Assembly: GCF_032191835.1 (NCBI RefSeq)
Contig: NC_083226.1
Span: 72,230,001-72,294,000 of the forward strand
Source: Heteronotia binoei
Taxonomy: Eukaryota
Length of the DNA: 64,000 bases
Direction of reading: 5' to 3'
Shown piece by piece: positions 7,911 through 29,376 of the stretch. The position numbers and the translations under genes are program-made. The first letter of the stretch is position 1. Each line of letters opens with the position of its first letter. Under the pieces are notes generated by a model. It was given only the letters and a program-made list of their open reading frames with translations. It was not told the origin of the DNA and ran no database searches.

Positions 7911-9332
7911 GGAAGTTTTCAAAGGAAGATTTCTTGCCTGGCTCTGAGGTGGTTCAGTCCAGTACCATGTGATCTTGCTCATTGCATAGCTTTTCCCTGA
8001 GCCCTAATTCATGATTCAGCTAGAAGAAGCATTGAAATACCATGGTGGAGGACCACACAGACAGTTTCCATTCTAGACCAAAATTTCCACATGAATGGCC
8101 AATTATGAAAATATCCAGTTTTATGAAAGCCCCCACAAAAGCACTGAAAGATCACATAAACCTTTTCTCTGTACAGTTAGCATTGGTCATATGGAAGGTT
8201 CAATTTACACTAGAAATTATCTATGTTATAGAGGAGGGAAGCTAGTGCTGTCCACTGCTATGCTATTTCAGTGTCATCCATAACTACATATCCATCACTA
8301 TATTACAAATAAGGGTTCACTGTTGCTGTCTGGTGCACCAGAAAAGAAATAACTAGAAGAGATATACATCACCAGTTGCTCTAGCAATCCCCAGAAATCT
8401 ATGAGTTTTTAGAGGATTACTATAGCCCTGATGATGCAGGATATCATGCAATTATTTAACCAGAAGTGATCTTGTGGTATCACATGATAGCACACAATGC
8501 TCAGCCCCTTTCCAGAAACAGCCAGAGGCTGCCAGCTGGCAAATCTACTTGCTGGGCAATGAATCCTTGAGAGTAGGCCTCATAACATTCACACACAATT
8601 TTTTTGTTTGATTTTTCAAATTGGTCATATAGCATAGGGAATGCTTAATTCAGAAAGTGCTAGTATGAAACGGATATAACGAGCAAAAGCAGCAGCAATT
8701 TTGCAGAGACTAATCACTAAAATTGCTGAAGTTTTCTGCAGGACTTTCATGTATGTGAACTGCTTGACTGTGTTAAAAGAATATGATACACCACAAAAAA
8801 GGGGGGAGGGGGAATTAGGCTACAGTCTTGATGCTGTAGCACAGGAACTAATCCAGGTGGTGCCAAGAAGAGCAGCCAAGGTAGCAACAAACTGCAAAGG
8901 GGATTTTCTTCAATACATATAAAATGTGCCATCAGGCCCAAGAGAGATTATTACCAGACCTGGAGCTTAGTCCCCTGGCTTTTCAATGTTACTTGAGATT
9001 GACCTCATTTAGTTTCTTCATTGTCTGAAAAGGCTTGTGCACTGAAAGGGAGTTCACATGTTAGGAAAGAAAAACATGTTTTTGAGCTTACTCTACTACC
9101 TGAAAATGTTAGATCTGGTCAAGAAGGGGAGTGTAATGCAATATTTCACTTGGATTCTCACATTAACAGTTTTATTAGTAATGAGTACAACTATTGTATG
9201 TCTGCATTTGAATCAACTACCACATCAGCTACTACAGAATGAAAGATTACCTGTACCAAGTAATGATTTCACAAATAGTGTTCAAGGAAGCTGCTTGCAA
9301 TTTGTGATCAAACTGTAATTTGAATACTGGTT

Positions 9333-9617
9333 GGTAGTAGATTAGGGTACCCTATCATCATCAAGCTGCATTCCAAAGTGACAGCTGCCCCGCCCACACA
9401 TGTGCGCGTACACACAAAAATGAACGTCATATGTTTCTCATGGGGGAGTGATGCAACAGTCCCCGAGGAGGCGGCTAGGGATCTGCCCCCACCAGGAATG
9501 CCTGCTTTTTCCTAAGGGGAAAAGGAGGAGGAGCAACTGGTGTAGCTGGCTTCATATTGTTTGAGGAAAAGCGTGTTTTGCAACACATACGTTATTTAGA
9601 AAAATGTGGAGATGCAA
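9333..9617 (+). repeat. Maverick left terminal inverted repeat (~285 bp)
   Basis: Aligns by eye with the reverse complement of 21040-21323, roughly 85-90% identical. Confidence 0.93.
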
Positions 9618-9901
9618 CAGTTTTCAAAAACAGACACATTGCTTTAGGACCCCCTCAAAGTCAATAGTTTACAGGTGGGAAGTGCAGGCACCAGAAATGT
9701 CGTTGTCCAATATTTCTGAAATGTTGCCGGCCATCCCTGGTTGTCACAGGGCGTGTCCCCTGCAACATTTAAACACACATGAGTGTCGGTGGTGCTTTCC
9801 CATGGAACTCTTTAAAATAGGGGAGACCCCCCCCCCACTCCATGGCATGCATTTGTTGCTTTTGGTTTCCCGGCTCTGTTGAACCATCATTTTATAAAGA
9901 A

Positions 9902-11516
9902 ATGAATGCTGTGGAGGCTGACAGGGTTCTGGCTTTGGAACAGGCTGTTCATGATGATATGAACACAGTGGAGACCGATGGGGGGGAAGCCGATGCTGGT
10001 GAGGAACCTGTTTATGAGGAGATGATGCATCCTTCACCCAAAAGCAATGGCAAGGAGTCTGGACATGATGAGGGAAAAGATGAAGCAGAGGATGAGGAAA
10101 AAGAGGAATGGGCGCAGTGTAATCAGAATTGGAAAGAGGATGTAAGTAGCACAAAGGAAACAAAGATGTTGTTGATGGGGGGCCGGACAGAAAATATTTA
10201 GAATTGTGTTTTTTCTTTTGCAGATGGAGGATGAAGGACTGTATTGGAGACTGATTGATCGAATTCTGGAATTGGCGCATAGTAGAGTGAGAACAAACTG
10301 TTGTAAATTCTGTACTACGATTACATATTGTCAAGAGAGTAGTTGTGTGAAAAATGCGACACACAAGAAGACTGGACAGGATGCGGAAGAGGAGGTGGAG
10401 GAAGAAGAAGAGAAAGAAGAAGAAAGTATAGTGTGTGCCGAATATTACCTAGAGAAGGTAAGTAGTGGGGAAACGTGAGAGGGATCCAGGGTGGTGTGGG
10501 GGACAGAATAAACATAGCTGTTTTTCTCTTGAAGAACAAATATGACGATGTGGAGTGGGAACAGTTTATACAAATTGTGGAAGTTGCACATGAGAAAGTG
10601 AATCCTTCATGTTATGGTTATTGTGAAGAAATAGCATGGTATCAAGAACACAGCTGGGTGAGAAAGAAAATGAAACGCCCACAACCTCCCTGCGTGCGAG
10701 ATTTATATCCGGGTGTAAGTTTTTTTATTTTAAAAGGGGGGGGGATGCGGATGTCTAGAAGGGAAATAGAAAGACTAAGACACTTTTCTTTCCTGACAAG
10801 GTGGGGAAAACTTGCCCGTATTCGGAGGTGGCGGATGTCGTCCCTGTGAAGCCAGAACCAAGTTGCTGCTGGGAATGCATGACCGTATATAACATGATTG
10901 TATATAAAGTTCAACCTGTAAAGAAGGATGATGAGGAAGATTCCCTAGCAGATGCTGAGCACGGTACCGGCAGTGATTCTGGAGCGGACATGGAGGATAC
11001 CTCTGGAGATTCTGGAACAGATACGGTGCCTGAAGCCATGGAAAAGGTGAGGGAACCCCCGACTTATGAAGCGCAAACACATGTGTTTCCAACGGATGCT
11101 GATCCAGCCAAGGATGGAGAAGAAGAAGACAACTGCCCATGCATTGAGGCTTTATTCCCCGATGTAAGTGTAATAAAACTGCACCAACTGTGTGAATGTA
11201 ACAAAGCAATATTTGAACTAAAAATGTGTTTTCTTCTTTGAACACAGGTGTGGGACAGACCCATTGATTTTGCACTACTGGCCAGATGCATTAGCGAGGA
11301 GATAAACCCAGGCTGTTGCTACCACTGTGGACTGGTCACCCTGTTTCAAAAAGAGGGATACGGTGCCCAAAGTGCGTCTGTAGATGTTCCAAAGTTTACA
11401 GTGTTCGAAGTAAGGGGGCAGACCTGTGTAAATTTCTGCAAAGGAAAGCCATGGAGCGTGCTGAGAAGCAGAAACAACTCGGAGAAAAAGATGAGAATCA
11501 GAACGAGTCAGAGTGA
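9902..11516 (+). CDS. Spliced Maverick accessory gene, acidic and Cys-rich, unknown function (at least 5 exons)
   Basis: Exons 9902(or 9842)-10141, 10224-10457, 10535-10714, 10801-11163, 11248-. Introns 10142-10223, 10458-10534, 10715-10800 and 11164-11247 all begin GTAAGT, end in a pyrimidine tract plus AG, and are phase 0, keeping the ORFs in frame. The start codon and 3' end are uncertain. Confidence 0.78.
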
Positions 11517-11718
11517 AGATCCAGTTTTTCTGTATATATGCAGCCTAATAAAAAAAAAAATACCTCCATTGTGGCAAAAGAGAGCAAAGTGTCATGACGC
11601 GCCACGGGGATGTGTTAAAAGGGATTTATTATAATCCGCGGGAGGTTGGTAGTTTTGGGGGTATTGAACTGCTATTTCAGGCAACATCTAAGAGGGGGTA
11701 TAAGGTGAGCAGAAATGA

Positions 11719-12109
11719 ACAGGGAAAACTAGATTTGTCGGTTCGAGCGTTATACACTTAATCATGGGTGACGAATTAGCGCTGCTGCTGGGGACTCCCC
11801 CTAACACACCGTTCAAAAACATTCAACACGCAAGGATATTACCAAAGGGTTTAATTCTCTGTACCTATATACCGATATCATAGAACACCAGCTGGTAGGG
11901 ACACAGCCGTGCCCCTTCTGCGCTGTGTTCCGATAAGAGGGAAAGCTCACGATTTTGTCACAGTCATCTATGATGAGCCCCACTACGTCCCCATCAACAA
12001 ACAGCATATCAAAACGATCTGCATAGAAATAAAGATGGATCAGAATCAACCCGTGTCATTCCGTTACGGTAAGGTCATCGTAAGGTTGCACTTACGACCG
12101 CGGGAAAAA
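11719..12109 (+). pseudogene. Minor capsid (penton-like) protein, C-terminal half only
   Basis: Frameshifted TGKTRF...MGDELALLLG / GFNSLYLYTDIIEHQLVG / PLLRCVPI...YVPINKQHIKTICIEIK...LHLRP, which I recognise as the C-terminal motifs of Polinton minor capsids. No N-terminal half is visible upstream. Confidence 0.8.
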
Positions 12110-12574
12110 ATGGTGATTGTGAAAGATTATGGGGACCCAGCGCTGTTTAGGGGCTATTACCGTTCACTGGCTGATTACGCTCTCCCTCGATTTCATGGTG
12201 CACCCGTTATGTATGGGTCAGGAGTTGGAGGGATTTTTCAGAGGCTTTTCCGAATGGCTGTACCGCTTTTTAAAAAAGGGACAGACATTGTCAAGCCACA
12301 CTTGAAAACTGCAGCTCGCAATATTGCTCAAGATGTTGTGGGCCATGTGACATGTCACGTTATGAATAAACTTGAACCCCAGGAGGGATCGGGCTTTATG
12401 TATCTAAAAAGAAGGGGCGGACTTAAAAGAAAATGGTCTATTACATGTAGGGGGCCCCCAGGACCTGTTAAAAGAAGCTGTGGGGGCCCCAAGAAGCAGA
12501 AGGCCCTGAGGAAGAGGGGAGGAAAGAGGAAGAAGAAAAGGACTCCTCACGGGGGACTCAAAGACGTTTTATAA
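12110..12574 (+). CDS. Basic Maverick core protein (PW/pX-like; name uncertain)
   Basis: MVIVKDYGDP...PVMYGSGVGGIFQRLFRMAVPLFKK...QEGSG and a Lys/Arg-rich tail. Lies between mCP and MCP. Confidence 0.75.
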   Translation: MVIVKDYGDPALFRGYYRSLADYALPRFHGAPVMYGSGVGGIFQRLFRMAVPLFKKGTDIVKPHLKTAARNIAQDVVGHVTCHVMNKLEPQEGSGFMYLKRRGGLKRKWSITCRGPPGPVKRSCGGPKKQKALRKRGGKRKKKRTPHGGLKDVL

Positions 12575-12581
12575 GCGGGCC

Positions 12582-13900
12582 ATGGCATTCATCCACTGCG
12601 GCTCGGAAGAGTGTGTGAAGTCGGAGCTCAATCTGTTCCAAATAGCCCCGACACAAACTTGCATCGAGAAAAGCTTGTATATCAAAGTCCTATCCCTATC
12701 AGCCCTTACAGGATCTCTGCCTCTAGAGTTCTACATAGCTGGAAATGGGGAAGATTACATCAATTTAAACAATATACTCCTCCACGTGAAATGCAAAATT
12801 ACTCGAGAAGATGGCACAGACCTCCCTGCTGATGCTAGAGTGGCACTGGTGAACTACCCTATAGCATCCACATTCAGTCAGCTGGATGTGACCGTTGGAG
12901 ATTGGCTGATCAGCCAGAGCAATAATTGCTACCCCAATAGGGCAATGATTGAAACTCTGCTCAATTACAGCAGGGAAACCCTAGGCACACAATTTTCAGC
13001 AGGTGGTTTTTATAAGGATATGGCTGGCCAGCACAAATCCACCATCCTGACAAACCCCGTCAACAAGGGGTTTGCCAAGAGTGCAGAACTAACGGCTGAG
13101 AGCAGGGTGATAGACCTTTTAGGGCATCTCCACATGGACCTATTTTTTCAAGAAAAACTGCTACTAGAGGGAGTGGATGTGAAAATCAAACTAAACCACA
13201 GCAGGGACACCTTCTGCTTGATGAGCGGTACGGGAGACGGGACACGTTTTAAGCTCCAGTTGGATTCAGTCTATCTCTTTGTGAAAAAAGTGAGGGTGTC
13301 CCCAAGTGTCCGACTGGCCCATGATGAAGCACTGATGACCTCCACAGCAAAATACCCTGTGGACCGTGTCAGCATGGAAGTGTTCAATATCTCAGCAGGA
13401 GCCCGTGTAAGCAACCAAGACAACTTGTTTTTGGGACAGCTTCCCAAAATGGTGGTCATGGCTCTGGTGGACAATGACACTTTCAGCGGCAGCTTCACCA
13501 AAAATCCTTTCCACTTTAAAGATTACAACATTAACTTTGCAGCCCTATATGTGGACGCGGAGCAGATCCCCCCCCAAAACCCTTCCAGCCCGACTTTGCC
13601 ATGGGGAACAACGTGAGAGACTACATGAGTTTGGTGCAAACGGCGGGGAAGAATCTTCAGGATAGACCGCTCCTAATAGATCATGATGAGTATTGGAACG
13701 GGTACACTCTGTTTGCCTTTGACCTCTCTCCCTATCAGGAATGTGCAGACCATTACTCCCTGATAAAAATGGGGAACCTGAGAGCTGAAATACGCTTTGC
13801 AGACGCACTCCCCCAAATGGTGAATTTGATCGTGTACGGGGTGTTTGACAACATCATCGAGATCAACCAAAGCCGCAACGTGCTCTTTGACTATATGTAA
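12582..13900 (+). pseudogene. Major capsid protein (double jelly-roll, Polinton/adintovirus type), one frameshift
   Basis: MAFIHCGSEECVKSELNLFQIAPTQTCIEKS...GHLHMDLFFQEKLLL...NPFHFKDY. Frameshift in the C8 run at 13568-13575, then GYTLFAFDLSP...GNLRAEIRFA...FDNIIEINQSRNVLFDYM*. Confidence 0.92.
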
Positions 13901-13901
13901 C

Positions 13902-14420
13902 ACGGATACTGTCCAGCTAACACGCGTCTTACTAGACAATCCTCACACCCGTAAAAGCTTCTTGAACCTCTTCCCCAGCGATCAGCTACCTGTTGAAAGG
14001 CTGTCCCAGAGGCCCATCTCTTCAGTGATGAAATCCCCACTACCTCCCAGGAGAATACTGGCTGGCGATTTATCTTGTTGACCCCGGGACCTCCGAGTTT
14101 TTTGACTCATTCGGCAACCCACCCTCTACCCCCTCTTTCCGCCTGCCATTATGTACTTTTTAAACAAGAATTCTAACGAGGTGCATTTCCAAAGGAATCG
14201 TCTCCAAGGACAACATCTAACACATGCGGACAGCACTGCCTGTTTTTTCTCCACCACCGCTGCAAAGGTGCCCCCTTTCACAAGATTATGAAGATGAATT
14301 CTCCCACCCCCAAACTGAATGACAGGATGGTCATGAGTTTTGCAAAAAGCACCCTGAAGAATTCAAGGACTTTACAAAACATGTACACTCGCACCCAAAC
14401 CTGTTTCTTGTGGTCCCCCT
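13902..14420 (+). pseudogene. Adenain-like cysteine protease
   Basis: (ACG)DTVQL...PGEYWLAIYL...EFFDSFG...LQG..SNTCGQHCLFFL across frameshifts. The catalytic His position reads TAC (14056-14058); Cys TGC is at 14225-14227. Confidence 0.88.
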
Positions 14421-14524
14421 AATAAAAATCTGTTGGAATATTAAAATGGAGTAAGCGTGTGTCTTTTGTCCATAAAATACTCAGAACCGAAAGATTTGCG
14501 TTAAAAAAAATTATTATTCTATAG

Positions 14525-15485
14525 TCAACCACGCCGTCTTCTTTTTTTTAAGAAGAAATAAGGAGGGGTGAATGTTTTTTGTTTTTTAGAAGAAATTACG
14601 GGTGTGCGCTTTAAAGCCGGAGACTGTGGGCTTTTCAAGTCTTCCAGCATTTTTCTAGCAGCCAGGATGCCCACCACTGAAGAGGGGACATATGAACATA
14701 TGAACATATGAAGCTGCCTTATACTGAATCAGACCTTTGGTCCATTAAAGTCAGTGTTGTCTTCTCAGACTGGCAGCGGCTCTCCAGGGTCTCAAGCTGA
14801 GGTTTTTCACACCTATTTGCCTGGACCCTTTTTTGGAGATGCCAGGGATTGAACCTGGGACCTTCTGCTTCCCAAGCAGATGCTCTACCACTGAGCCACC
14901 GTCCCTCCCCCCACCGTCCCTCCCCACCGTCCCGACGTTGAGTTTGGCCAGAGCCCTCATAAACATGTCCATGCCTTTAGGTGAGGGGGCAGAAGAGGGA
15001 GGGCGAGTCTGAGTAACAGCCTTGACCAAGTCAAGCAGATGGCTTCCAGCAACAGAGGCCCCTCTGTAAAGAAAAGTTCCCCTTTCATCCCAAGAGGCAA
15101 TTTCTTTGTTTTGATCCATTTTCTTTAGCAGCACACGGGCATTGTTCCTGTTTCGATGTGGTAGATTCTCTATCACCTCTTCAAAAACCGTTGCATTTTT
15201 TTTCTCAACGTCGAGTGTTAACTCAGTTTGCGGGAGATACAGATCCAGCTTAGTTTTCTCTTCCTCACCCATTCTGACGTGCGTGAGATATTTCTGAAGA
15301 AGAGAAGCATAGACCTTGGCCTTCTGGTATTCTGATAAATCCCCCCTCTCTAGAACCCTTTTCATCTCCTTGTCTAGACAGTGCACAACGGCGTGCCTGA
15401 TGGGTTCACTCTCAGAGGGCCGCTGAATAGTTAGACAATCTAACTGCTGGCTAGGGACCAGGTACATCTTCTCCGCAAGATCCAT
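14525..15485 (-). pseudogene. Conserved Maverick core ORF (PZ-like; name uncertain), interrupted by a SINE
   Basis: MDLAEKMYLVPSQQL...LDKEMKRVLER...WDERGTFLYRG...SHLLDLVK...LAKLNV, resuming as PSSVVG after the SINE at 14688-14933. Confidence 0.8.
14688..14933 (-). mobile_element. tRNA-derived SINE (Squam3-like) inserted in the Maverick gene
   Basis: Minus strand GGTGGCTCAGTGGTAGAGC (A box) and GGTTCAATCCC (B box), 3' tail (TATGTTCA)n. It splits codons ...LNV|PSS.... Confidence 0.88.
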
Positions 15486-15814
15486 CAGGAGGGTGTTAAA
15501 AAGCTGGTGAGCAAGGGCAGAACAAAAGCCAGCAAGGACCCTATAAAGCCCCCCTGCTGTCTCACCAGTTTCTTCTTCTTTGTAAGGAGAGTCTTAGAGC
15601 TGCTCAGGGTTTTAATCAGGGACCGTTTTTTTCGCAGGACAGTCTTCTGCCGCTGTGACAGGGGGATGACACCTTTTAGCGTGTTTAAAGCTATCTCCCC
15701 GATAGCCTTTATTAAATCGTTTGGAGCAGCGCACAGAATAGCATTCCTTAGATGAGGGGGTGATTTGGAGATGAGTATCAGGAGTCTTCCATTTCTTTTT
15801 AAGCATGCAGACAT
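15485..15814 (-). CDS. Small basic Maverick core protein (PM-like; name uncertain), intact 109 aa
   Basis: MSACLKRNGRLLILISKS...DLIKAIGEIALNTLKGVIPLS...RQQGGFIGSLLAFVLPLLTSFL. Lies directly downstream of the ATPase. Confidence 0.78.
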   Translation of the reverse strand: MSACLKRNGRLLILISKSPPHLRNAILCAAPNDLIKAIGEIALNTLKGVIPLSQRQKTVLRKKRSLIKTLSSSKTLLTKKKKLVRQQGGFIGSLLAFVLPLLTSFLTPS

Positions 15815-15865
15815 GCTTCCTCCATGCCAAGCTGACTCTCCTTAAAAGCCTCGCAGAGTTGAGCG

Positions 15866-16343
15866 TCAGCGCCTTTTAATTCCCCCGACTTTTTTTTTAA
15901 CAACATAGCAGACCAGGAGGTCTGGGGGGAACATCCCTGTATGAAGTCTGTAAGATTCTGGCGTGGTCACGTTTAAATCCACCATCAGGTAGCCGAAGGG
16001 CTTTCCCGTGGCATCTTCATAAGCCTCCATAAAAAAGGCCGCGTTCCCAGGGTACATCTGTCTGGCTAGAGTCGCTATTTGTAATTTATCTCTGGTTTTT
16101 TTTAACTAACACCATGTACTTGGTTTTCAGATTGATGGTTCTGCTGCTCTTCTCCTTGCAGAATAGATTCTGCACGATGTAAATAATACTCAGATTTATG
16201 TGATGAACGTATTTGGTGAAAGCATTTTCGATTTCGCCGCTATCGGAGGCACACGCCATCAGATCATCCACAATGACGAGGTTTATTTTATTAAGAGGTA
16301 GCAATTCATCATCATTAAAATTGGAGGGCAAATCCTCTACAAA
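15866..16343 (-). pseudogene. A32/FtsK-like genome-packaging ATPase, C-terminal part
   Basis: FVEDLP...LVIVDDLM (Walker B)...FTKYVHHINLSIIYIVQNLF...RTINL, frameshift in an A run near 16100, then LARQMYPG...DATGKPFGYLMVDL. The N-terminus (Walker A) is replaced by CR1. Confidence 0.9.
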
Positions 16344-18290
16344 CTAATAATACCCAGTATGGCGTTGGCCTTTTTTATTGCAATCGCACACTGTCTTGAC
16401 ATTATCAGTGAGTTATCTACCACGACCCCAAGATCTCTCTCTTGGTCAGTCTCTGGCAGTTCACACCCCATCAACTTGTATTTGCAGCTGGGATTCTTGG
16501 CCCCAATGTGCATTACTTTGCACTTGGCCACATTGAACATCTTCTGCCACGTTGACGCCCACTCACCCAGCCTCAACAGATCCCTTTGGAGTTCCTCACA
16601 ATCCTCTCTGGTTCTTACCACCCTGAACAATTTAGTGTCATCCGCAAACTTGGCCACTTCACTGCTTACTCTCAACTCCAAATCATTTGTGAACAAGTTA
16701 AAGAGCATGGGTCCCAGTACTGAGCCCTGCGGCACTCCACTGCTTACCGTCCTCCACTGCGAAGACTGCCCATTTATACTCACTCTCTGCTTCCTATTAA
16801 TTAGCCAGTTTTTGATCCACAAGAGGACCTGTCCTTTTACTCCATGACTCTCGAGCTTACTAAGGGGCCTTTGATGAGGAACTTTATCAAAAGCTTTTTG
16901 GAAGTCAAGGTAAACAATATCTATCGGGTCTCCTTTGTCCACATGTTTGTTCACCCCCTCAAAGAAATGTAACAGGTTAGTGAGGCAAGATCTTCCCTTG
17001 CAGAACCCATGCTGAGTCTTCCTCAATAACTCGTGTTCATCAATGTGCCCACTCATTCTGTCCTTGATAATGGTTTCTACCAACTTTCCCGGTATTGAAG
17101 TCAGACTGACTGGCCTGTAGTTACCCGGATCTCCTCTGGAACCCTTTTTAAAGATGGGGGTGACATTTGCTACCTTCCAGTCCTCAGGAACGGAGGCAGA
17201 TATCAATGAAAGATTACATATTTTTGTCAAAAGATCCACAAGTTCATCTTTGAGTTCTTTCAGAACTCTTGGGTGTATGCCATCTGGACCTTGTGACTTA
17301 TTAGTTTTTAATTCGTCCATCAGTTGTAAGACCTCCTCTGTTTTCACCTCAATTTGGCTCAGGTCTTTCAATACCCCTTCCAATAGAAGTGGTTCCGGAG
17401 CAGGCAAACACTTCTCATCTTCCACAGTGAAGACGGAGGCAAAAAATTCATTTAGCTTCTCAGCCATTTCCTTATCCTCCTTCAGTAATCCTTTGACCCC
17501 CAAGCTTCCCCAAGGGTTTTGACTGTATGTACCTTTCCTTTCAGTTTCCTCCTCACATGCCTCCTCATCTCAGTGTATTTACCCCTTTTAAAGTTAAACG
17601 TGGTTGTGGGGTCTTTTTGGACAACTCCCTATTTATACAAACGGTGCAATCAATAACATTATGGTCACTGCTCCCAAGCGGCGCAATCACTTTTACATCT
17701 CTCACCAAGTCTTGGGCATTACTTAGGACCAAATCCAGGATCGCCCCACCCCTGGTAGGTTCTGAGACCATCTGCTCCATAGCACATTCATTGAGAGCAT
17801 CAAGAAACTCAATCTCTTTCTCTCGACCAGAACACATATTGACCCAATCAATCTGCGGGTAGTTAAAATCACCTATTACGACACAGTTTTTACGTTTAGC
17901 CACTATCTTTAAGTTTTCCATCATATTATAATCGTCCTCTCTCTTTTGATTTGGTGGGCGATAACAAACTCCCATAGTTAAATTTCCTTTTGGGCCCTCT
18001 ATTCCAACCCAAAGCATTTCTAAAAGTGAATCTAATTCTCTGACCTCAGTCTTACTGGACCGTATATCCTCTCTGACGTACAGAGCCACCCCACCTCCAA
18101 CCCTTCCCTCCCTATCCTTTCAATATAGCTTATATCCAGGAATCACCGTGTCCCACTGATTCTCCTCATTCCACCAAGTTTCTGAAATTCCCACAATGTC
18201 TATGTTTTCTCCCAACACTAAACATTCCAATTCACCAATTTTACTTTGAACACTTCTAGCATTTGCATACAAACATCTATAATTTCCCTG
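16344..18290 (-). pseudogene. CR1 ORF2 (AP endonuclease + reverse transcriptase)
   Basis: CLYANARS, ISETWW, GDFNYP, SSDHN; RT motifs PGNYRPVSLTS, YLDFQKAFDKV, GVPQGSVLGP, FADDTKL. Stop at ~18120 and a deletion near 17505. Confidence 0.92.
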
Positions 18291-18481
18291 GCGAGCTAGG
18301 CCCACCACCTTCCCCCTGCCACCTCGAGACTCTGGCAGACAGTCCATATTGTTTGTCGCCTTTACAGTGGACAACTCTGGTCTGTTACCCGGTAGAAAAA
18401 TAGCAGCTAACCCTTCATCTCTTTGAGTCGAGTCCTCCCAAACCAGAGACATTTCATCTCCTGTCGGCTTTCCCCCAAGAT

Positions 18482-19381
18482 TTAGTTTAAAAACTGCTTT
18501 GCCACCTTTTTGATTTTAAGCGCCAGCAGCCTGGTTCCATCCGGGGACAAGTGGAGACTGTCTCTTTTGTACAGCTCCCGCTTGTTCCAGAAAGCATCCC
18601 TGTGCCTAACAAACTTAAACCCTTCCTCCTTACACCATCGTCTCATCCACACATTGAGACTTCTAATTTGTGCCTGTCTCTCCTGCCCTGCACGTGGAAC
18701 AGGTAGCACTTCCGAGAAGGCTACCTTGGAGGTCCTGGCCTTAAGTCTCCCGCCTAGCAGCCTAAATTTTTCCTCCAGGACCTCACGACTGCATTTCCCC
18801 ACATCGTTGGTGCCAACATGCACCACGACCACAGGCTCCTCCCCAGCACTGTCTATCAGTCCATCTACTACACGCGTAATGTCCGCTACCTTTGCACCAG
18901 GCAGGCAAGTCACCATACGGTCAGTACGCGGTTTCGCCACCCAGCTGTCTACTTGCCTAAGGATCGAATCACCAACTACCAAAAACCCCCCTCTCCCCCT
19001 GCTCAGGGATGGTTCCTTGGCGCGAAAGGATTCCCGCTCACCAACCGAAGAAGAGGTCCCTTCTGAGGGCGCATTCCCCTTGTCCTCAGCACGGTGCCCT
19101 GTTCCCTCTCGCTCTCTGGCAGCAACGGGGCTGCTACGTTCAGAGCGGGGCTCATCTAATATGCCCCCGAGAGTCTTCCCCAAGTGCCTAACTGACCGTC
19201 TCTACTTCTCCAGGGCAGTCACCTCGGCCTCAAGGGTACGAACTCGTTCCCTGAGGACCAGGAGCTCCTTGCATCGAGCACACACCCAAGACTTCTGTCC
19301 TTTGGGCAGATAGTCATACATGTGACACTCAGTGCAAAACACTGGAAAGCCCCCAACCCCCTGCTGGCATTCTATCTTCAT
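18482..19381 (-). pseudogene. CR1 ORF1 (Cys-rich finger + SGNH/GDSL esterase)
   Basis: FCTECHMY...VCARCKE, one premature stop near 19205, then VVGDSIL, HVGTNDV, DSLHLS. Confidence 0.9.
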
Positions 19382-19919
19382 GATATATATATATTAAAAT
19401 ATACAGTCCTCTTTAAATGCTGTTTGTTTAAGTGGCTCCCCTTCTGGAGGGTCAACTTACCTTACCTCAACTTACCTTATTGGGAACTTACCTTATTTAG
19501 AGAACAAGGAAATCAGGGATCTGGGTTCCTGGCCCTTAGAGAGCCCCTAGGTGAAGAGCCACAGGCCAAGAGCCCTTTAGCTCTCGCCAAAGGCTCGCGC
19601 CTTTGGGAAGGCGCAGCTTAAAATGCAAAGAGGGTGGAGCAGAGGCACTCCTCAGCAATCAGCAGCAATCACTCTTAATCTCTTTCACCCTTAGGCCAGT
19701 CAACCAAACAAAGAGCAGTCAACCAAACAAAGAGCAGTTCCCCAGCTATCACACCTTAGAATTTTAGGCAGCCCCACAAACCTTAGAATGAAGTCCTTAG
19801 AATGAAGTCCTTCAAAACTCAGAAATTCTCAGCAATTTCTCCAGCTGTCTCAGCTATCAGAGCTGCTCTGCTCCTCTCAGACCTCTGTGAGACCTCACTT
19901 TTTAGCAGTTTTAACACTG

Positions 19920-20420
19920 TCCTTTATATTTATAAAATCCAAATTTCGCCTCTTCCTTCTCTTTTCTTCCAAGCTTTCTATACTTTCTTTTCCCACCTTT
20001 TAATTTTGTCCCTTTAAGTTATAAATAGTTCCGGAATGAAAAAATAATCTTCTGTACCTTTTCTTCCTAATATCCAAGTTTCCACTGGTCTTTCAAAGCT
20101 TTAGATGTTTAGCAATGTCCAAGAAGGTTAGGATTCTGACGAGCTTATGTCAAATAAATGACTCTGGGCACTTCTGCAGACGATGACTATGCAACTTCCC
20201 CTGAGACCCCTCAAAGCCTCAAAGAAGTCCCCCTCCGGGGCTCCCTTTAAGCCAAGGTAAATCTCCTTAAAGTTTTCTGTGCATGTCTTGGACTATTCTC
20301 TAACTGAGAAAAGTAAGCAGTAGGCATTAATTTGCCTTCCACTACCCCGAACAGAAGTTCCAGCCTGCTCCCGTTATGAGAGACAGCTTAGCTCGGCATT
20401 TTCCTCCCCCGGAAGTCGCT
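19920..20420 (-). mobile_element. Possible 5' fragment of an L1-like LINE
   Basis: Minus strand begins GACTTCCGGGGGAGGAAAATGCCG at the CR1b break, reminiscent of L1 5' ends. A weak IESLEEKRRKRRNL stretch follows. Not firmly assigned. Confidence 0.3.
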
Positions 20421-20897
20421 ATAATACCCTTTTTTGAGGTGCGGTGACCAGAACTGTACACAGTATTCCAAATGAGTCCGCACCATCGATTTATACAAGG
20501 GGGCATTATCATACTGGCTGCTTTGTTTTCAGTCCCCTTCCTAATAATTCCCAGCGTGGCGTTGGCCTTTTCTATTGCAATCGCACACTGTCTTGACATT
20601 TTTTTCAGTGAGTTATCTACCACAACCCCAAGATCTCTCTCTTGGTCAGTCTCTACAGGTTCACACCCCCATCAACTTGTATTTGTAGCAGGGATTCTTA
20701 GCCCCGATGTGCATTATTTTGCATTTGGCCATCTGCCACATTGTCGCTCGACTCACCCAGCCTCAACAGACCCCTTTGGAGTGCCTCACAATTCTTTCTG
20801 GTTCTCACCACCCTGAACAATTTAGTGTCATCTGCAAACTTGGCCACTTTGCTGCTTACTCCCGACCCCGGATCATTAATGAACAAGTTAAAGAGCA
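20421..20897 (-). mobile_element. Second CR1 RT fragment (truncated at both ends)
   Basis: LFNLFIND, FADDTKLFRVV, SRQCAIAIEKANATLGIIRKG. Confidence 0.88.
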
Positions 20898-21039
20898 CGA
20901 GTTGTATCGACACGCAACCTGATGCAACCTGATGTTAAAGGGACGTGTTACACGTATAAGGTTAGCCGTGCTCAGTTTTAAAGACATCATTTTATCCATT
21001 GGGCATGTCTCCTCTCCAAACTATGGCCGCTTAGAACCA

Positions 21040-21323
21040 TTGCATCTCCACAATTCTCTAAATAACGTCTGTGTTGCAAAACACACTTTCCCCCAAACAA
21101 TATGAAGCCTGCTACACCAGTGGCTGATCCTCCTTTCCCCCTTAGGAAACAGCCGGCATTCCTTGGGGGACGGATCCCTAGCCGCCCCCTCGGTGGACTG
21201 TAGCATCACTCCCCCATAAGGAAACTTACGACGTTCATTTTTGTGTGTGCACGCATGTGTGGGCGGAGCAGCTGTCACTTTGGAATGCGGCTTGATGATG
21301 ATAGGGTACCCTAATCTACTACT
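21040..21323 (-). repeat. Maverick right terminal inverted repeat
   Basis: Reverse complement starts AGTAGTAGATTAGGG, the typical Maverick AGT-repeat terminus, and is followed by the TSD. Confidence 0.93.
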
Positions 21324-24300
21324 CTGGTTCTTTAAACATAAGAAAAACCTAGTTTACCATATAATTACCATCAGAGCTGATCATTTGAATCTAAGCTTCA
21401 TAATCAAAAGCATTCATTCAGAGAGGACTTCCATTTTGTTCTCGTGAGCATATCAAGATAAGGTACTTTGTCTCTACATGGTTTGGCATTCACAAAGCTG
21501 TTCTGCATAGGTAACGCATGAACTCTACCTGACCAGATGGAAAATAGGAGTAGACTTGCTGCTAGAATTTGAAAAAATAGTCACTGGGGTGGATCCAACT
21601 ATCCTTCAAGTAGCTTTACTCCAGCCTGTGGAGCTTTTCTCCAGCTTGTATAGCTTTCCTTCGGTTTAGGTGGCGTTCCCAAAATGGAACAGCTACTTAA
21701 GTTGGAGGAAGGCTTTTTTGATTGGAGGAAAGCTTCATACCTAAGCCAATAGGAAAAGATGGGTTTAAATATCATAATAAATAAAGACACAAACTCTGCT
21801 CAGTTGAGAGGTAGGATAGGAGTAGGAGCTATCCCATTGGGATAAATATTTCACTAATTTTAAATCCTACATTGAAAATTCTGGTGAGCATACCAAACTG
21901 CCATGCTTTTAATACATCTACCTCAGAGTGAAAAGGTTTGTGGCACATTTTTTTTTAAAAAAAGCATTGTAGGTGGTTAGACAAAAAGGGCAGCATTTGG
22001 GTGATGTCAGCTTCATCTATAACAGCAGGAGGGAGAGCTGGGGGGGGAAAGTCCTCTCACGCATATATGTGTTGCTCACTGCATTGTGACAGTGGGTGAT
22101 GTGAAAGACCTTACCCAGGACTCTGGAGAGCTGCAGTCAGAATAGACAATATTGACCTTGATAGACCAATGGTCTGACTTACTATAAGGCAGTTTCATGT
22201 GTTCATGTAAACCTTTCACAGAATTTCATAGTTAAAAGTGCAAAAACAGATCAGTGGTTATATAGCTTCTAGTCTGCAATCTCATGAATCAGTGTGATGT
22301 CAGGCAAAATATGTATGCAACAGGATAAATGCATATTCAGTTTTAAGATGTCAGAAACCAGAATGCAATGCAACTGCTACAACTGATGAAGCAGTAAATG
22401 ATGAAAGTACATAGGATACTGGGGAAATGTTACTTTGTTCAACTGTTTCAAAACTGATGATGGAAGTATTCCTTAGGTTTATTAGATGTGGACAGCCATA
22501 AGTTCAGGATGGACTGTCCATTAGAATTCTAATTGCACATGAAGAACAGGGATCACAGGAAACTGTCATCTCAACATGCTATTAAAGCCACTAGAATGAG
22601 TATGTGAATGTTTGTGTGGGAAGACCCTTACTGTGCGCCCTCTATTATGTCCTCTGTTATGTCCAAGACCTAATGTATATTTTACTGCTGTGGTGTTCTT
22701 GCTTTCCTGAGTTACCCTGGCAATTTGCCAAAGTCCCAGGCAGTTTCTCATATGAGCAATGTGGTATGTAAAATGGCATCTCAAAGCACTGAATCACAAC
22801 ATTGTCCAGTCTCTCTTATACAGTCCAAGACTCCATAAGTAACTGCAAACCTCACCTCCTGAAACTATTCCAAATTTTCCAAATCACTTTCCTGGTGAAG
22901 CATGAATGAATGACATCTACAGATGGCAAAGTGGAGCACAATTGAAGGAGATGATGCTAAATGAAAAAAGATTAAAGGGGGGAAAAATCATGTGATTTCA
23001 CTTATCTCCTCACAAATAATCTGAAAGCTAGTAAGCACACACAAAAAGTATTTCTTCCAATGCTAACAATTCCATTAGAAGGAAGGATCTTACAGGTTCT
23101 TTCATTTCCTTCCTGAATGCAATATAATGCCTATTATCAACTCTGCTTCTCAGTAAACATACCAATGTGTGGCCTCAACATGGGACCCATTCATTGCTTT
23201 GAATGTGCTGTCAATTATTGCTTAAATATTCAAGACTAGCTCGGCATCCCAACAATCAGCAATGGCATTTTTACTCTACTATTACCTTGCATGTAATCTG
23301 GAGGCTTTAAAAACCTGCTGTTCAAAGACTGCTCAAGTCTGTCAAGAGATTCCTCCACTTTACCCTACCATCTTATTTAGACATGTTGGATTATGCAAAG
23401 AGCCTGAGAACTGTCACACATAGCTGGTTAGATTCTTCTGTTTTGGGCACATGTAAAAGGGGAAATTTAAGAATTGGGAAAAAAATTCTTCCACACGTTC
23501 ACCATAATACTTTTCTTGTACTTTAACCTACACATTTTATGAGTGTTATGAGCCACTGTAAATCTCCAATTCAGTGCTGGAAAGGTGAGAGTATAGAAGT
23601 GCACCATCTTGCTCTCTACACATGTTAAAATATGTTGGTATAGGAACCAAGCTCAAGCCCTGTTCAGAAGTTCATTCTAGGTAAGATTGTAAGAATTATG
23701 GTTATTTCACATGACAGCCTCCTGTTCAATTAGTATTTGTTGTGGTGAATGCATAAAGTCTGAAGAGAATTCAACATCCCCAAGTGCTAAAAGATAAAAG
23801 GCTGAAGCTAGTGGAAATTTATTTTAACATTTGAGGAGGAGCCAAGTGGACATTTTGGGTGAACGTTCTCTGGCTGATGGCCCTCCGACTCACCATTTTT
23901 TCTGGGGTTGGCAGAAGAAACAGCAGGGAGTGGACATGATTTCAGATGGCACTCTAGAAACTATAATATTACCCTATGATAATACCATAAAATTTCTAGA
24001 GCATCAGACAATACACTGATATCACATCTGATTTTCTGCCTAGATACAATGTTTGCAAGTAGTTCAACATCACATATGCCCTGCCCCTGAAGTTCCCAGG
24101 GGTGCCTCTGCTTGAGAACTCAATCTGAGTGGATAATACTACCACTGATAGACCATGAGCTTGATTCAATATAAGGCAATTTCAGGTGTTTATGTATAAG
24201 TAATGGAAGAGTGGTGATATCTGCCAGTTCCTTCTACCATCACAAACTTCTGTTCCTGCTCATGGTATTCCTCTGGGTCTCCTGCCCCCCCCCCCAACAC

Positions 24301-24596: not shown

Positions 24597-24861
24597 TGTA
24601 ATGTACTGAGAACCGAGACGGTTTGAAGGCAACATTCTTTATTGGGGGGTACATTACCAGACAAAAAAGCATGCGGGCCGGGCCCCGCTTATATACATCG
24701 CCTGGACAGCCCCCCTGGTTTGACCAGGCCAATCCTGGTCAGTCCAAACTTCCCGCCACAGGTCTTGGTGGGCGGGGCGACTGGCGAGCTACATCCGGGG
24801 ACCCAGGGGTCGCCTTCTGTAGGGCTCGCGATGCGGTACCATCTTAAGTCAATACATAACA
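24597..24861 (-). repeat. Gypsy 3' LTR (265 bp)
   Basis: TGTAATGTAC...CATAACA, a direct repeat of 29015-29376. Polypurine tract on the minus strand at 24862-24872. Confidence 0.93.
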
Positions 24862-24999
24862 CTCCTCCCCCCTTAGCTCAGGACACATAATCCCTCAAGT
24901 AAGCGGGAGCTGTGAGCACCCGGGTCGACCTCCGGGGGGACCCTTGGGGGGGTTGACCCGGCCACCGGCTCTGTCAGGGGCCCAGCTGCTGTGGCCCCC

Positions 25000-27994
25000 A
25001 CGTGGGGGAACCGCCGGCCTATGGCTGATCATGCCCCCCAGTTCTGCCGGGGCTCTGGCCGTCCTCTTCGTTTTGATGTGGCTCCGCTACCCGCTTGGTC
25101 GGAGCGGGCGGTGGGGCCGTTCATTGGGGAGGTGTGGCGGTGGGCTCCTCTCCGCCCTGCATAGCCTCCGGTTCATCTGGCAGGGTGCGGCGGCGGATTT
25201 GGTTAATGTGCCTCCACAAGATTCGGCCCTCCTCCGTGGCTACGTCGTAGTGACGGGACCCTAGGACACGCAGCACCCATTCCACTACCCACTCGGGGCT
25301 GTTCGCGTAGTTCCTCGCGTACACCGGGTCTCCCGAGAAGAATCCCGTGGCCACTTCCCTAATCTCGGGGGACCCGCGGATGTCCGAGGCCCGGTCGGGG
25401 TGCAGCCTATCGAGTCTCATGATAAGCTTGCATCCCATTAGTAATTCCACCGGGCTTACCCCTGTGACAGGGTTGGGGGTTATCCTGTTGTCAAATAGGA
25501 AGGCGGCTAAATGGTGGTCCCAGTCCCCTTGCACTATGTGACCCAAGGCTTCCTTTGTGGTGCACACCATTTGCTCCGCTTGACCGTTAGTGGCTGGGTG
25601 GAATGGGGCGGACCGTATGTGCCGAATTAAGTACCTCTGTAGGAACTCCTGGAATTCCCTGGAGGTAAAGGCGGTCCCGTTGTCTGAGACGATGGTGTCC
25701 GGGATTCCATGCGTGCTCAGGGCCCTGTGCAGCGCCCCGATTGCCGCCGCCGTGGAGGTGGATGCCACCGGAATGACTTCCAGCCACTTGGTGAATGCGT
25801 CCACCAAGATGAAGAATATTTGACCCTGGAAGGGCCCCGCAAAGTCGATGTGAAGCCTCGACCACGGCTTCCTGTTAGTTTCCCAGCGTTGCGCGGGGGT
25901 GCTGGGTGGTTCGGGTTGGGATTCTTGGCACGCTCTACACTTCCGGACCCAACCCTCTATCTCCTCGTCCATCCCCGGCCACCAGACGTAGCTACGTGCT
26001 AATGCCTTCATCGTAACAATTCCTGGATGAGTTTCATGGAGGGACTCTAGCACTTGCCTCTGTAGCAGGGGGAGCACCACCACCCTGCTGCCCCACAGAA
26101 GACACCCCTTGTGGGCAGCTAGTTCCTCCTTCCACATTGTGTATGCCCTGAACTCCTCGCCCAGTTTTCCCACTGGCCAACCCCTTACCAGCCAGTTGAG
26201 AACCCACGCGAGTATCTTGTCTCGCCCCGTGGCTTTCGCTACCTCTGCTGCGTGTAGAGGCCGCTCCGGGAGCGTTTCTATGAGCATCACATGGTGGGCT
26301 GTGGCTGGGTCAGGGTCCAGGGTGAGCAACGGTAAGCGGCTGAGTGTGTCTGCGTGGCCCATAGCCTTGCCCGGCCGGTGGACCAGGGTGTACGTGTAGG
26401 GATTGAGGGACTGATTCCACCGCAGCACACGCTGTGATAAGATCTGTGGCGTTTGGTGGTCTGGGGCTAAGAGGCCCAGGAGGAGTTTGTGATCTGTGGC
26501 TATGGTGAACCGCCTCCCGTACAAGTAGTTATTAAACTTGTGTACCCCAGCCACAATCGCCAGAGCCTCTTTGTCGATCTGGGCATAATTCCGCTCTGCA
26601 GGGGTCAGGGTCCTCGAGTAGTAGGCCACCGGAACCTCCCTCCCGTCCAGGAGTTGGTGCCCCAGGACGGAGCCCACCCCGTACGGCGATGCGTCACAAG
26701 TGAGGACCACTGGTAGGCTCTCATCAAAATGGTGTAGTACGTCATTGGAGATGAGCAGCCCTTTTACTGCCTGAAACGCAGTGTCCTGTGCCTTCCCCCA
26801 GACCTATGGGGCATTTTTGTCTGGGAGTCTGTGGAGAGGTTCCGCTATGGCGGCTTTGTGGGGCAGAAACTAATGATAAAAGTTTAATAACCCCAAGAAA
26901 ATTTGTAGTTCTGCCTTATTTGTGGGGGTGGGGGCTTCCACAATGGCGGTGGCTTTGTCGGGTGTCGGGTGGATCCCTGCTGCGTCCACCGCAAATCCCA
27001 AGAACTCTACCCTGGGCACCCCCAGGGAGCACTTTTCCCGCTTCACTTTCAGACAGGCCTCTTGGAAGCGGCAAAGTACTTCTCGCAGCCGGTTGCTGAA
27101 TTCCTCTGCATCTGGGGTGGCGATCAAAACGTCGTCAAAGAACAGCTGTACCCCGGGGATCCTTTTGAGGAGAGAATCCATCAGACTCTGGAATACCCCC
27201 AGGGCCACGCTCACCCCAAACTGGAACCTCCGCACCTTGAATGCCCCCCGGTGGGTGACTATGGCTTGTGCCTCAGCCGTGGCGGTGTCCATGGGCAGTT
27301 GCTGGTACGCCTGGGCCAAATCCAGTTTCCCAAAGACCTTGGACCCCGCTAACGCAGCCAGAACATGGCTGATGACTGGAACCGGATAGGGATTGTCCTT
27401 AAGTGCCTTGTTTATGGTGCACTTATAATCCGCACATATGCGCACCTCCCCGTTCGGCTTTACCGGGGTCACTATTGGGGTTTCCCACACGGCATAGGAA
27501 ATTGGTTCCAGCACCCCCCGGGCTGTGAGGCGGTCTAGCTCGGCCTCGATTGTGGGCTTCAAGGCAAACAGGACCCGCCTGGCCTTCAACCTTACGGGCC
27601 GCACATGGGGATCGAGGGGCAAGGATATGGGAGGGCCCTTGTAGCAACCCAGGGCCCCATCAAACACCTCCGGGAACTTCTTACACACCTCTTTGAATTC
27701 CCGCACCCCCAGCTGCTGGACCCCCACGATTTTTATTCCCAGTGGCCGGAACCAAGCTAGTCCCAACAGTGTGCTGAGCTGTCGTTTGACCACCAGTAAG
27801 TCAAGTTTGCCCCTAAACCCATTGTATTCCACCCCCACTGTTGCCCACCCCAGGACTTGAACAGGGTTCTTTTGAAAGTCCCGAAGCACGAAGCCTGCCG
27901 GCCACAGTCTGGGCCGGCCATGTGGGCACATCTTCCTCAAAGATTCCTCCGAGATTATAGAAATGGAGGACCTGAGTCCAGTTCCATCAGGCAA
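25000..27994 (-). pseudogene. Gypsy pol (protease, RT, RNase H, integrase)
   Basis: MELDSG; RICADYK, KLDLAQAYQQL, FFDDVL; LTCDASPYG, EALAIV; LHETHPG...CRAC; HIDFAG/VSDNG/NGQAE. Confidence 0.92.
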
Positions 27995-28909
27995 GGCTTG
28001 CCCTGGATCCTGACGGAGACCTTGACCTTGTGGGGCGTCTCATCGGGCAAGTTCATTACCTGGACGCTGGTTGAGGCTGTCGCGTAGTCTCCGATCAGCT
28101 CCTGGTTTGTTGACTGGCAGTGGCGGGGGGGTCTGGCACGGCAGGCCCTCACGATGTGGCCGATCTTGCCGCAGCTCCTGCAGACCATGTTGCGGTAGGG
28201 GCAGTCTCTTCGCTCGTGGGGGTCGCCACAGCTGGCGCACTTGGTCGAGGGTGGTTTCTCAGTTGCTCGGGGTCGCAGTGTCGCTCGTGGGCCCGTCCCT
28301 GCTTGGCGGCGTAGCTGGAGTGCCTCTTCTTCCTCCGGTCCACCGGAGTCCATCTGTCCCTGGTGGACGGCGTCGGCTCTCGTTTTGGGAAAGGTCCTCG
28401 TGGAGCGCTCGAATGCTACGGCCTCGTTGAAGGCGCTCTGGAGGGTGAGCTCTTCCCTCACGAATAGCTTCTGTTGCAGCCTCTCGTCTCTCAGGCCCCA
28501 TGTGAAACGGTCTGCCAGGGTCTCCTCCAGCTGTCCAAAGCTGCAGTTGCCCGCGATTTGGCGGAGAGCTGCCAGGTAGTCGGCGGCCGTCTCTCCCGCT
28601 TCCTGGTCCCTCTGGTGGAAGAGGAATCGGCGGGCCACACGTGAGGGCTGCGGCAAGAAGTGCCCAGTGAGGAGTCTGACTATCTCCTCATAGGACTTTT
28701 CCGTGATCTTCGTGGGGGCCGAGAGACCCTTGGTGATCTTGAACGTGGCCACTCTGCAGACACTCAGGAGAACGTCCCTCTTTAGGCAGTCTTCAGTTAT
28801 TCTGTTGGCTCGCAGGTAGCACTTTACCCGCTCCGTGTAGGTCTCCCCCTTCCGGATTCGCGGGGTTGAACTCTTCGATATGGCCCATTGTTCCGCTCTG
28901 GTTAGCCAT
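27960..28909 (-). pseudogene. Gypsy gag
   Basis: MANQSGTMGHIEEFNP, then after a frameshift YLRANRIT...ARRFLFHQRDQ...LRDERLQQKL; zinc knuckles CASCGDPHERRDC and CRSCGKIGHIVRAC. Confidence 0.88.
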
Positions 28910-28995
28910 GGTGGCTGTGGCGGTGGTAGCCCGACGGGTTGCCTTCGAAGTCTCTGATGGATCCGCGTAGCCCTATTTAAATTTCCCAGGCTAGG

Positions 28996-29013
28996 ATCCC
29001 ATCCTCGTCGCCA
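28996..29013 (-). promoter_or_regulatory. Primer-binding site complementary to tRNA-Ser(GCT)
   Basis: Plus strand ATCCCATCCTCGTCGCCA equals the 3' 18 nt of vertebrate tRNA-Ser(GCT) as I recall it. It lies 1 nt from the LTR. Confidence 0.82.
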
Positions 29014-29014
29014 C

Positions 29015-29376
29015 TGTAATGTACTGGGAACCGAGACGGTTTGAAGGCAACATTCTTTATTGGGGAGTACATTACCAGACAAAAAAGCATGCGGGCCGGG
29101 CCCCGCTTATATACATCTCCCAGACAGCCCCCCTGGTTTGACCAGGCCAATCCTGGTCAGTCCAAACTTCCTGCCACAGGTCTTGGTGGGCAGGGCGACT
29201 GGTGAGCTACATCCGGGGACCCAGGGGTCACCTTCTGTAGGGCTCGCCATGCGGTACTATCTTTTTTTTTTTTAAACATTCATCATTTATTGAGATTAGT
29301 ATATATAACAAATCCATAGTAATAATAAGTATTTAACAATTAAACTTGCGGTACTATCTTAAGTCAATACATAACA
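29015..29376 (-). repeat. Gypsy 5' LTR containing a short LINE-type insertion
   Basis: About 11 substitutions versus the other LTR by eye count, plus an insert at 29264-29346. Confidence 0.92.
29264..29346 (-). mobile_element. Very short polyadenylated retroposed insert (L1-type 3' stub)
   Basis: Minus strand AATAAA plus poly(A), flanked by a 14-bp TSD TGCGGTACTATCTT (29250-29263, 29347-29360). Confidence 0.85.

Follow-up and report, generated by a model that had tools for sequence, protein, structure and literature searches.

A putative spliced accessory gene with a repeated cysteine domain upstream of the integrase of a gecko Maverick element

From genomic sequence we conclude that a Maverick element of the gecko Heteronotia binoei very probably carries a real spliced gene, with five exons and four phase-0 introns, between its left terminal inverted repeat (TIR) and the integrase. 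The element lies in a 64,000-nt stretch of contig NC_083226.1 (positions 72,230,001–72,294,000, forward strand), here called the window, to which coordinates refer unless a locus is named. Intron-bearing Maverick accessory genes are already known as a kind from nematodes, while the vertebrate case and the repeat family appear to be new. An earlier note on this DNA had described a spliceosome-dependent accessory gene that plain ORF finders would fragment, and this is supported by frame-keeping indels, conserved splice sites and faster-changing introns. Its suggestion that the gene might be host-modulating finds support at the level of short motifs.

Results

The element spans positions 9333–21323, has AGT-type ends and is flanked by a 6-bp target-site duplication, CTGGTT (9327–9332, repeated at 21324–21329). 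In the left TIR (9333–9622, plus strand), the arms 9334–9418 and 9488–9622 pair with 21238–21322 and 21035–21169 of the right TIR (21035–21323, minus strand), which ends in ACTACT. On the plus strand, a 5′ remnant of the integrase gene (11594–11718), recognized by blastn against locus L041, is followed by remnants of the minor capsid, PW, major capsid and protease genes (11718–14420), which were named by position, the protease alone having a weak Pfam match. The PZ, PM and truncated packaging ATPase genes (14934–16345, minus strand) were also named by position, with weak Pfam matches only for the ATPase. They adjoin a secondary LINE insertion with reverse transcriptase, endonuclease and GDSL-esterase ORF (16346–20915, minus strand, right bound approximate). 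The window copy is a decayed fossil, because about 1.3 kb of the integrase gene is lost, the ATPase is truncated by the LINE, pPolB was not found in this copy, and exon 5 of the spliced gene is frameshifted. An insertion of about 240 nt in the PZ gene (14690–14933), probably a SINE, is absent from L041. Elsewhere in the window, 249-nt direct repeats 4418 nt apart bound a GC-rich region with two long minus-strand ORFs (24597–29263), probably an LTR element.

Better-preserved copies provide the gene order. In L042 and L041, matches to DNA_pol_B_2 (E 1.9e-38) and rve (E 1.6e-14, accompanied by a chromo domain in L041) lie downstream of the spliced gene. A young copy is arranged as TIR, spliced gene, integrase and four ORFs, with PZ, ATPase and pPolB on the opposite strand. 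The number, size and orientation of the ORFs fit two converging modules; the protease and ATPase gave sub-threshold Pfam matches and the capsids none. Within the pPolB frame of L042 (1–3591, minus strand) there is an internal RAP-domain match (E 1.2e-5, above the cut-off), a possible nuclease-like insert. Comparison of L041 (1–630) with the window (9333–9692) showed that the gene and core are common to both and that the terminal region is almost unshared (45 nt at 83% identity); an exchange of TIR or promoter between young and older subfamilies is suggested. Loci L012 and L013 (G000:C3) carry identical gene regions in opposite orientation, side by side with about 0.8 kb between them. Seven other pPolB loci were searched with the repeat profile in 14 neighbouring stretches, without a match.

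The introns of the spliced gene, on the plus strand, occupy positions 10142–10223, 10458–10534, 10715–10800 and 11164–11247 (82, 77, 86 and 84 nt), in agreement with the earlier note in position and length. All four have the features described there, namely a GTAAGT donor, a pyrimidine tract, an AG acceptor (CAG, AAG, AAG and CAG, respectively) and a position between codons. The plus strand of the 12-kb element contains four GTAAGT hexamers, which are the four donors. Finding at least four in 1.6 kb has a probability of about 1.5e-4 given the window background, a value that makes the case look stronger than it is, since independence of the four introns does not hold. Exons 1–4 contain no stops and their lengths are all multiples of three. 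Read without splicing, the frame ends after 119 amino acids in the window copy and after 214 in L035; intron 4 contains an in-frame stop.

The start had been placed at position 9902, but an in-frame ATG at 9842, 20 codons earlier, is found in all 22 copies covering the site and is taken as the start here. Upstream of this ATG the sequence varies freely in length among copies, and downstream it keeps frame. The 20 added codons are colinear with the Gekko homologue P0006 (39% identity, E 4e-10) and bring an N-terminal Cys cluster (MACICCFWF in the window, 9842–9868) and the first of two YxxM motifs (9893–9904 and 10013–10024). The coding part of exon 1 (9842–10141) also encodes an acidic tract and the first Cys of repeat 1. 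Exon 2 (10224–10457) encodes the CCxxC half of repeat 1, an acidic linker and the first Cys of repeat 2. Exon 3 (10535–10714) is 180 nt long in 21 of 27 copies. Exon 4 (10801–11163) encodes repeat 3, a long acidic linker rich in Pro and Thr, and the first Cys of repeat 4, and exon 5 (11248–11516) the best-conserved repeat and a helical tail. The frameshift in exon 5 of the window copy lies at about 11390–11420. In 18 of the 24 copies covering this exon it is 270 nt long and ends at the position of the window TGA (11514–11516), which together with the revised start gives a product of about 435–450 amino acids. The Kozak-like ATG is kept among copies, as is an AATAAA polyadenylation signal (11547–11552), which lies 22–37 nt past the stop in 23 of 27 rows.

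RNA came from one run (X1, share 0.07) with 43 contigs and no joints. Two of the eight contig pieces listed for this run span introns 3 and 4 unspliced with fairly flat depth, which fits DNA or read-through, and the library may hold either. A contig starting at the exon 3 boundary (10534) was rejected as evidence of splicing, since contigs cannot show starts. We infer splicing of the gecko Maverick gene from the genomic copies.

A DNA search of the Heteronotia binoei genome yielded at least 40 loci with 83–94% identity, plus small second pieces, these being the best 40 of 196 candidates. A protein search added a young subfamily, L035–L038, whose members are 99.5–99.9% identical. Their near-identity spans 3.1 kb on different contigs, which indicates that the gecko Maverick family has apparently multiplied recently. 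Our alignment comprised 27 rows, with L013 and L015 dropped as duplicates, L036–L038 represented by L035 and the short-form loci described below left out. Conservation of the splice sites, proposed earlier as a check, was borne out and fits introns of the U2 type, with GT and AG each kept at 95 of 100 copy-sites (GT and AG, respectively: intron 1, 21/22 and 21/22; intron 2, 25/27 and 26/27; intron 3, 26/27 and 26/27; intron 4, 23/24 and 22/24). So was the expected faster change of introns: variants common to at least three copies occurred at 0.16 per site in intron interiors versus 0.07–0.08 in exons, about a twofold difference.

Of the indels common to at least two copies, 11 of 12 in exons and 1 of 21 in introns had a length divisible by three (Fisher 7e-7). 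This contrast is inflated, because several such exon indels fall within GAA tracts and homopolymers hold many of the intron indels. Among private exon indels the fraction was 21 of 48. Eighteen stops were private, one occurred in two copies and none in three or more; for splice-site changes the corresponding numbers were 16, three and zero. The frame-keeping indels and the absence of widely shared stops or splice changes indicate that the spliced frame was most probably kept during copying of the element and decayed after insertion. The whole gene is kept in only 3 of 19 full-length rows. The expectation of dN/dS below 1 in the exons failed, as shared pN/pS was 1.24; the integrase, treated by the same procedure in copies that overlap partly with these, gave 0.33 (p 6e-4). 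By part, pN/pS was 0.68 for the domain and 1.17 for the linker, a difference that is not significant. The protein thus appears to change quickly, by drift or adaptation, whereas its frame and key residues are retained.

All four junctions sit seven codons past a Cys, with CCxxC in each next exon. A C-x(29-35)-CCxxC unit of about 55 amino acids is repeated in tandem to form the protein, with four units in the window copy and two, three or four in homologues. The earlier reading of the junctions as four independent coincidences is therefore replaced, because the introns are copies of one position (Cys+7) in a repeated domain. The DNA of exon 2 resembles that of exon 3 (z 6.4), and the ends of introns 1 and 2 are shared. 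Similarity between introns was rejected as proof of duplication, since no significant resemblance was seen among their interiors (best z 1.7 and 1.2 in two comparisons); support for duplication is confined to the ends and the flanking exons. A short-form subfamily (L026–L031, L039, L083, L089, L102, L105 and L106) has three exons and two repeats, the first degenerate. Its first intron is a different one at the same repeat position (GTAAG in 10 and AG in 10 of the 11 loci examined).

In each repeat, one CCxxC and one distant single Cys were found when tested against the paired CxxC of Oncoid and E1A proteins. The C, W, L, A and P of the last repeat are invariant among proteins that are about 30% identical, and Asp plus Glu make up 25% of the protein. 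AlphaFold2 models the unit as three short helices (pLDDT 75–92) between disordered acidic linkers, with mean pLDDT of 67.8 for the whole protein and 73.0 for a single repeat. The unit probably binds a metal ion, one per unit, and presents a surface to a partner. Sequence searches of Pfam, PHROGs and PDB gave nothing above cut-off. Small helical models match weakly in general, which limits fold searches: with the AlphaFold2 models, Foldseek gave no match at E ≤ 0.001 in PDB or BFVD, and the best VIA Z values, 4.0 and 3.6, represent no significant fold match. A Bcl-2-like fold was rejected because the Foldseek rows were noise (E > 2). The ESM Atlas gave no usable match, and a profile search of proteins of 738–2105 amino acids detected no long fused form, which is weak evidence.

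Exon 5 matches the RefSeq protein XP_060099311.1 (LOC132574985, Heteronotia binoei, 415 amino acids), which has the same four junctions, starts 20 codons late and is labelled an uncharacterised host gene, under a name that does not reflect its Maverick origin. This protein is letter-for-letter the exons of L035, and so confirms the gene model without being an independent lineage. The description of the gene as hidden consequently holds for Maverick surveys and not for RefSeq, whose annotation has the same junctions. The search returned 14 matches among 1.84 billion representatives. Further homologue models came from Gekko kuhli, Paroedura picta, Eublepharis macularius and Sphaerodactylus townsendi, in addition to two unnamed ORFs (Logan/ENA). 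Conserved intron positions in other geckos are suggested by five Gekko models from which precisely exon 3 is missing, and by the two unnamed ORFs, whose beginnings coincide with the last-exon boundary. No cellular donor emerged among the matches looked up, all of which are gecko models or unnamed Logan/ENA ORFs (P0022 aside), and no relatives were found in IMG/VR or JGI metagenomes.

Of 17 homologues, 11 carry an acidic [IVT]Y[EV][ED]M motif, versus 0.03 in shuffles, and four of these carry it twice; it is missing in the other six, including two Paroedura and two Eublepharis models. Sphaerodactylus models carry FFCRC or FFCSC near the start, in two cases behind a basic, MG-led stretch. Overall the motif pattern appears to be kept across five gecko genera. 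LxCxE was not enriched (2 of 17 homologues versus 1.6 expected from shuffles), a CR1 pattern occurred in 2 of 17, and no true PxDLS was found among these sequences. Membership of the Oncoid/E1A group was rejected, as the test for LxCxE and CR1 motifs failed. Short N-terminal sequences such as MDCLCIV of PSD-95 and MLCCMRR of GAP-43 are palmitoylation codes according to the accessible part of PMC2063950. The accessible text of bioRxiv 10.1101/2025.03.22.644753 describes binding of pYxxM by the tandem SH2 domains of p85, and a PI3K-activating HER3 bis-phosphopeptide that carries pYEEM.

In a second Maverick family of the same genome, whose integrase is about 60% identical, the corresponding slot is taken by an unrelated acidic gene with two exons (L055 4080–4900, minus strand; copies L058–L076). 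Its phase-0 intron is 94 nt long in 15 of 20 copies, with GT in 17 and AG in 20 of the 20, and the last exon encodes CxxCxC and a basic tail. The slot upstream of the integrase thus appears to be exchangeable, and the second family's own spliced gene suggests that a spliced gene in this slot is a general pattern. The TIR-proximal region of the second family (L055 4815–5570, minus strand) contains four TGACGTCA, seven CCGGAA and six CCAAT motifs, of which the window family has almost none. Such clustering resembles the adenovirus early enhancer.

Discussion

The uniformity of the four introns is likely to go back to one ancestral phase-0 intron inside the repeat unit, which multiplied with the domain; the introns would then be alike because each was duplicated together with its domain. 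Duplication or deletion of an intron-plus-exon unit would change the repeat number and leave the frame intact, and would produce both the uniform introns and the forms with two, three and four repeats. Independent insertion by an intron-generating transposon (introner) is, by comparison, extremely unlikely. The introns do have similar lengths and identical donors, and introners are described in dinoflagellate polinton-like viruses in the available part of PMC12166617, but all four lie at the same codon of a repeated domain, their flanking exons are duplicates and their interiors are not alike. It is also very unlikely that the region is a tandemly duplicated degenerate unit, neither spliced nor translated, for which the gene models would be ab initio artefacts. 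Although the X1 contigs are unspliced and without joints, pN/pS is near 1 and only 3 of 19 full-length rows are whole, this reading is at odds with the frame-keeping indels, the lack of widely shared stops or splice changes, the invariant Cys and Trp among proteins of about 30% identity, and the retained Kozak-like ATG and AATAAA.

For the product of this probable gene, we tentatively propose an acylated, membrane-anchored PI3K adaptor acting through tandem YEEM motifs, a chain of steps which, taken as a whole, is possible though short of probable. S-acylation of the N-terminal Cys cluster would anchor the protein to membranes, where host tyrosine kinases could phosphorylate the tandem acidic Y-E-E-M motifs and p85 SH2 domains would be recruited. 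This would switch on PI3K-AKT in the way of a receptor tail that needs no ligand, and the cell hosting the replicating element would be more likely to survive or proliferate. Tandem YxxM motifs in an acidic context are present, which is a statement about motif presence only. Acylation, phosphorylation, p85 binding and metal binding are each read from motifs, and the N-terminal Cys residues could serve another purpose. Several viruses encode receptor-tail mimics, among them polyomavirus middle T, the gammaherpesvirus proteins Tip, LMP2A and K15, and HSV VP11/12, which are membrane-tethered, non-catalytic proteins whose tyrosine motifs dock SH2 proteins such as p85. The gecko protein resembles these in its proposed working principle and in the benefit that PI3K-AKT would bring to the element, without a shown relation in sequence or fold, and its anchor would be N-terminal acylation instead of a transmembrane segment. 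More doubtful is the broader proposition that a spliced "early" slot upstream of the integrase is general among vertebrate Mavericks and has been overlooked, and that it is filled here by an acylated tandem-YEEM adaptor with a new metal-binding repeat that would activate PI3K in the manner of middle T.

Two other functions have to be weighed against the PI3K adaptor. E1A is also spliced and terminal, and the left-terminal position, splicing, 25% Asp plus Glu and paired Cys of the gecko gene recall it, so that a nuclear early regulator, an E1A/E7-like transactivator or cell-cycle modulator with metal-binding repeats and acidic tracts, deserves consideration; we regard it as somewhat unlikely. 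The adintovirus "Oncoid" genes described by Starrett et al. (PMC8502044, as far as the text is accessible) speak for such a role, but they typically lie upstream of PolB whereas the gecko gene lies upstream of the integrase. LxCxE (2 of 17 versus 1.6 expected) and CR1 (2 of 17) moreover give it no support among the homologues, a true PxDLS is missing from them, and the conserved Cys-rich N-terminus and YEEM motifs indicate a membrane role. Captured or selfish cargo, as in the case of nematode wasp and krma, or an antagonist of silencing or immunity, in either case unrelated to PI3K, is unlikely. Cargo would occupy the same slot as the intron-bearing genes of nematodes, would agree with fast amino-acid evolution in a maintained frame, and would match the unrelated spliced gene that fills the slot in the second Maverick family; against it stand the lack of a cellular donor among the 14 matches looked up (P0022 aside) and the persistence of the motif pattern across five gecko genera.

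Widen et al. (bioRxiv 10.1101/2022.07.12.499685, accessible text) report nematode Maverick genes with introns in the stretch that separates the left TIR from the integrase, namely wasp proteases and krma kinases. Like this cargo, the gecko gene has introns of the spliceosomal type, is placed in the variable region that precedes the integrase on the left-TIR side, and has core genes without introns as neighbours. The gecko gene differs in its vertebrate host, an unrelated protein, the absence of a ubiquitin-like or catalytic domain, the absence of a detected host donor, and introns multiplied by internal repeat duplication. The gecko element is similar to the vertebrate Mavericks of Barreat and Katzourakis 2021 (PMC8097293) in its AGT-type ends, 6-bp target-site duplication, apparent pair of converging core modules and flanking accessory region; the available part of that paper reports no introns in intact vertebrate elements and models core genes only. 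With the adintovirus Oncoid (PMC8502044, in the part available), the gecko gene shares an acidic, Cys-rich, short-motif accessory protein, and it differs from Oncoid and E1A in its lack of LxCxE or CR1 enrichment, its slot and its repeated CCxxC domain. The motifs of the family were not found in the accessible portions of the supplements of PMC8502044 and PMC8097293. The self-splicing introns treated in the accessible text of PMC11296320 and PMC12220804 have no bearing on the gecko gene. A literature search found no prior account of a vertebrate spliced Maverick gene or of this family, within a coverage beyond which lay Repbase, most subscription papers, figures and bioRxiv supplements.

Published descriptions give vertebrate Mavericks no introns, and little of their accessory regions has been read. 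The retention of frame in a spliced gene through repeated copying would mean that the host spliceosome serves the element and that genes for interaction with the host escape surveys based on ORFs, while genome annotation files such genes as anonymous host genes. The repeat array would also be a clear example from nature of introns gained when a domain containing one was duplicated. For vertebrate Mavericks, of which no particle or life cycle has been observed, acylation, pYEEM and p85 provide a short, testable lead on how the cell may be manipulated. If the adaptor reading is true, no host-signalling protein would have been shown for a polintovirus before it, and it would point to a replicative stage in which the host cell is rewired.
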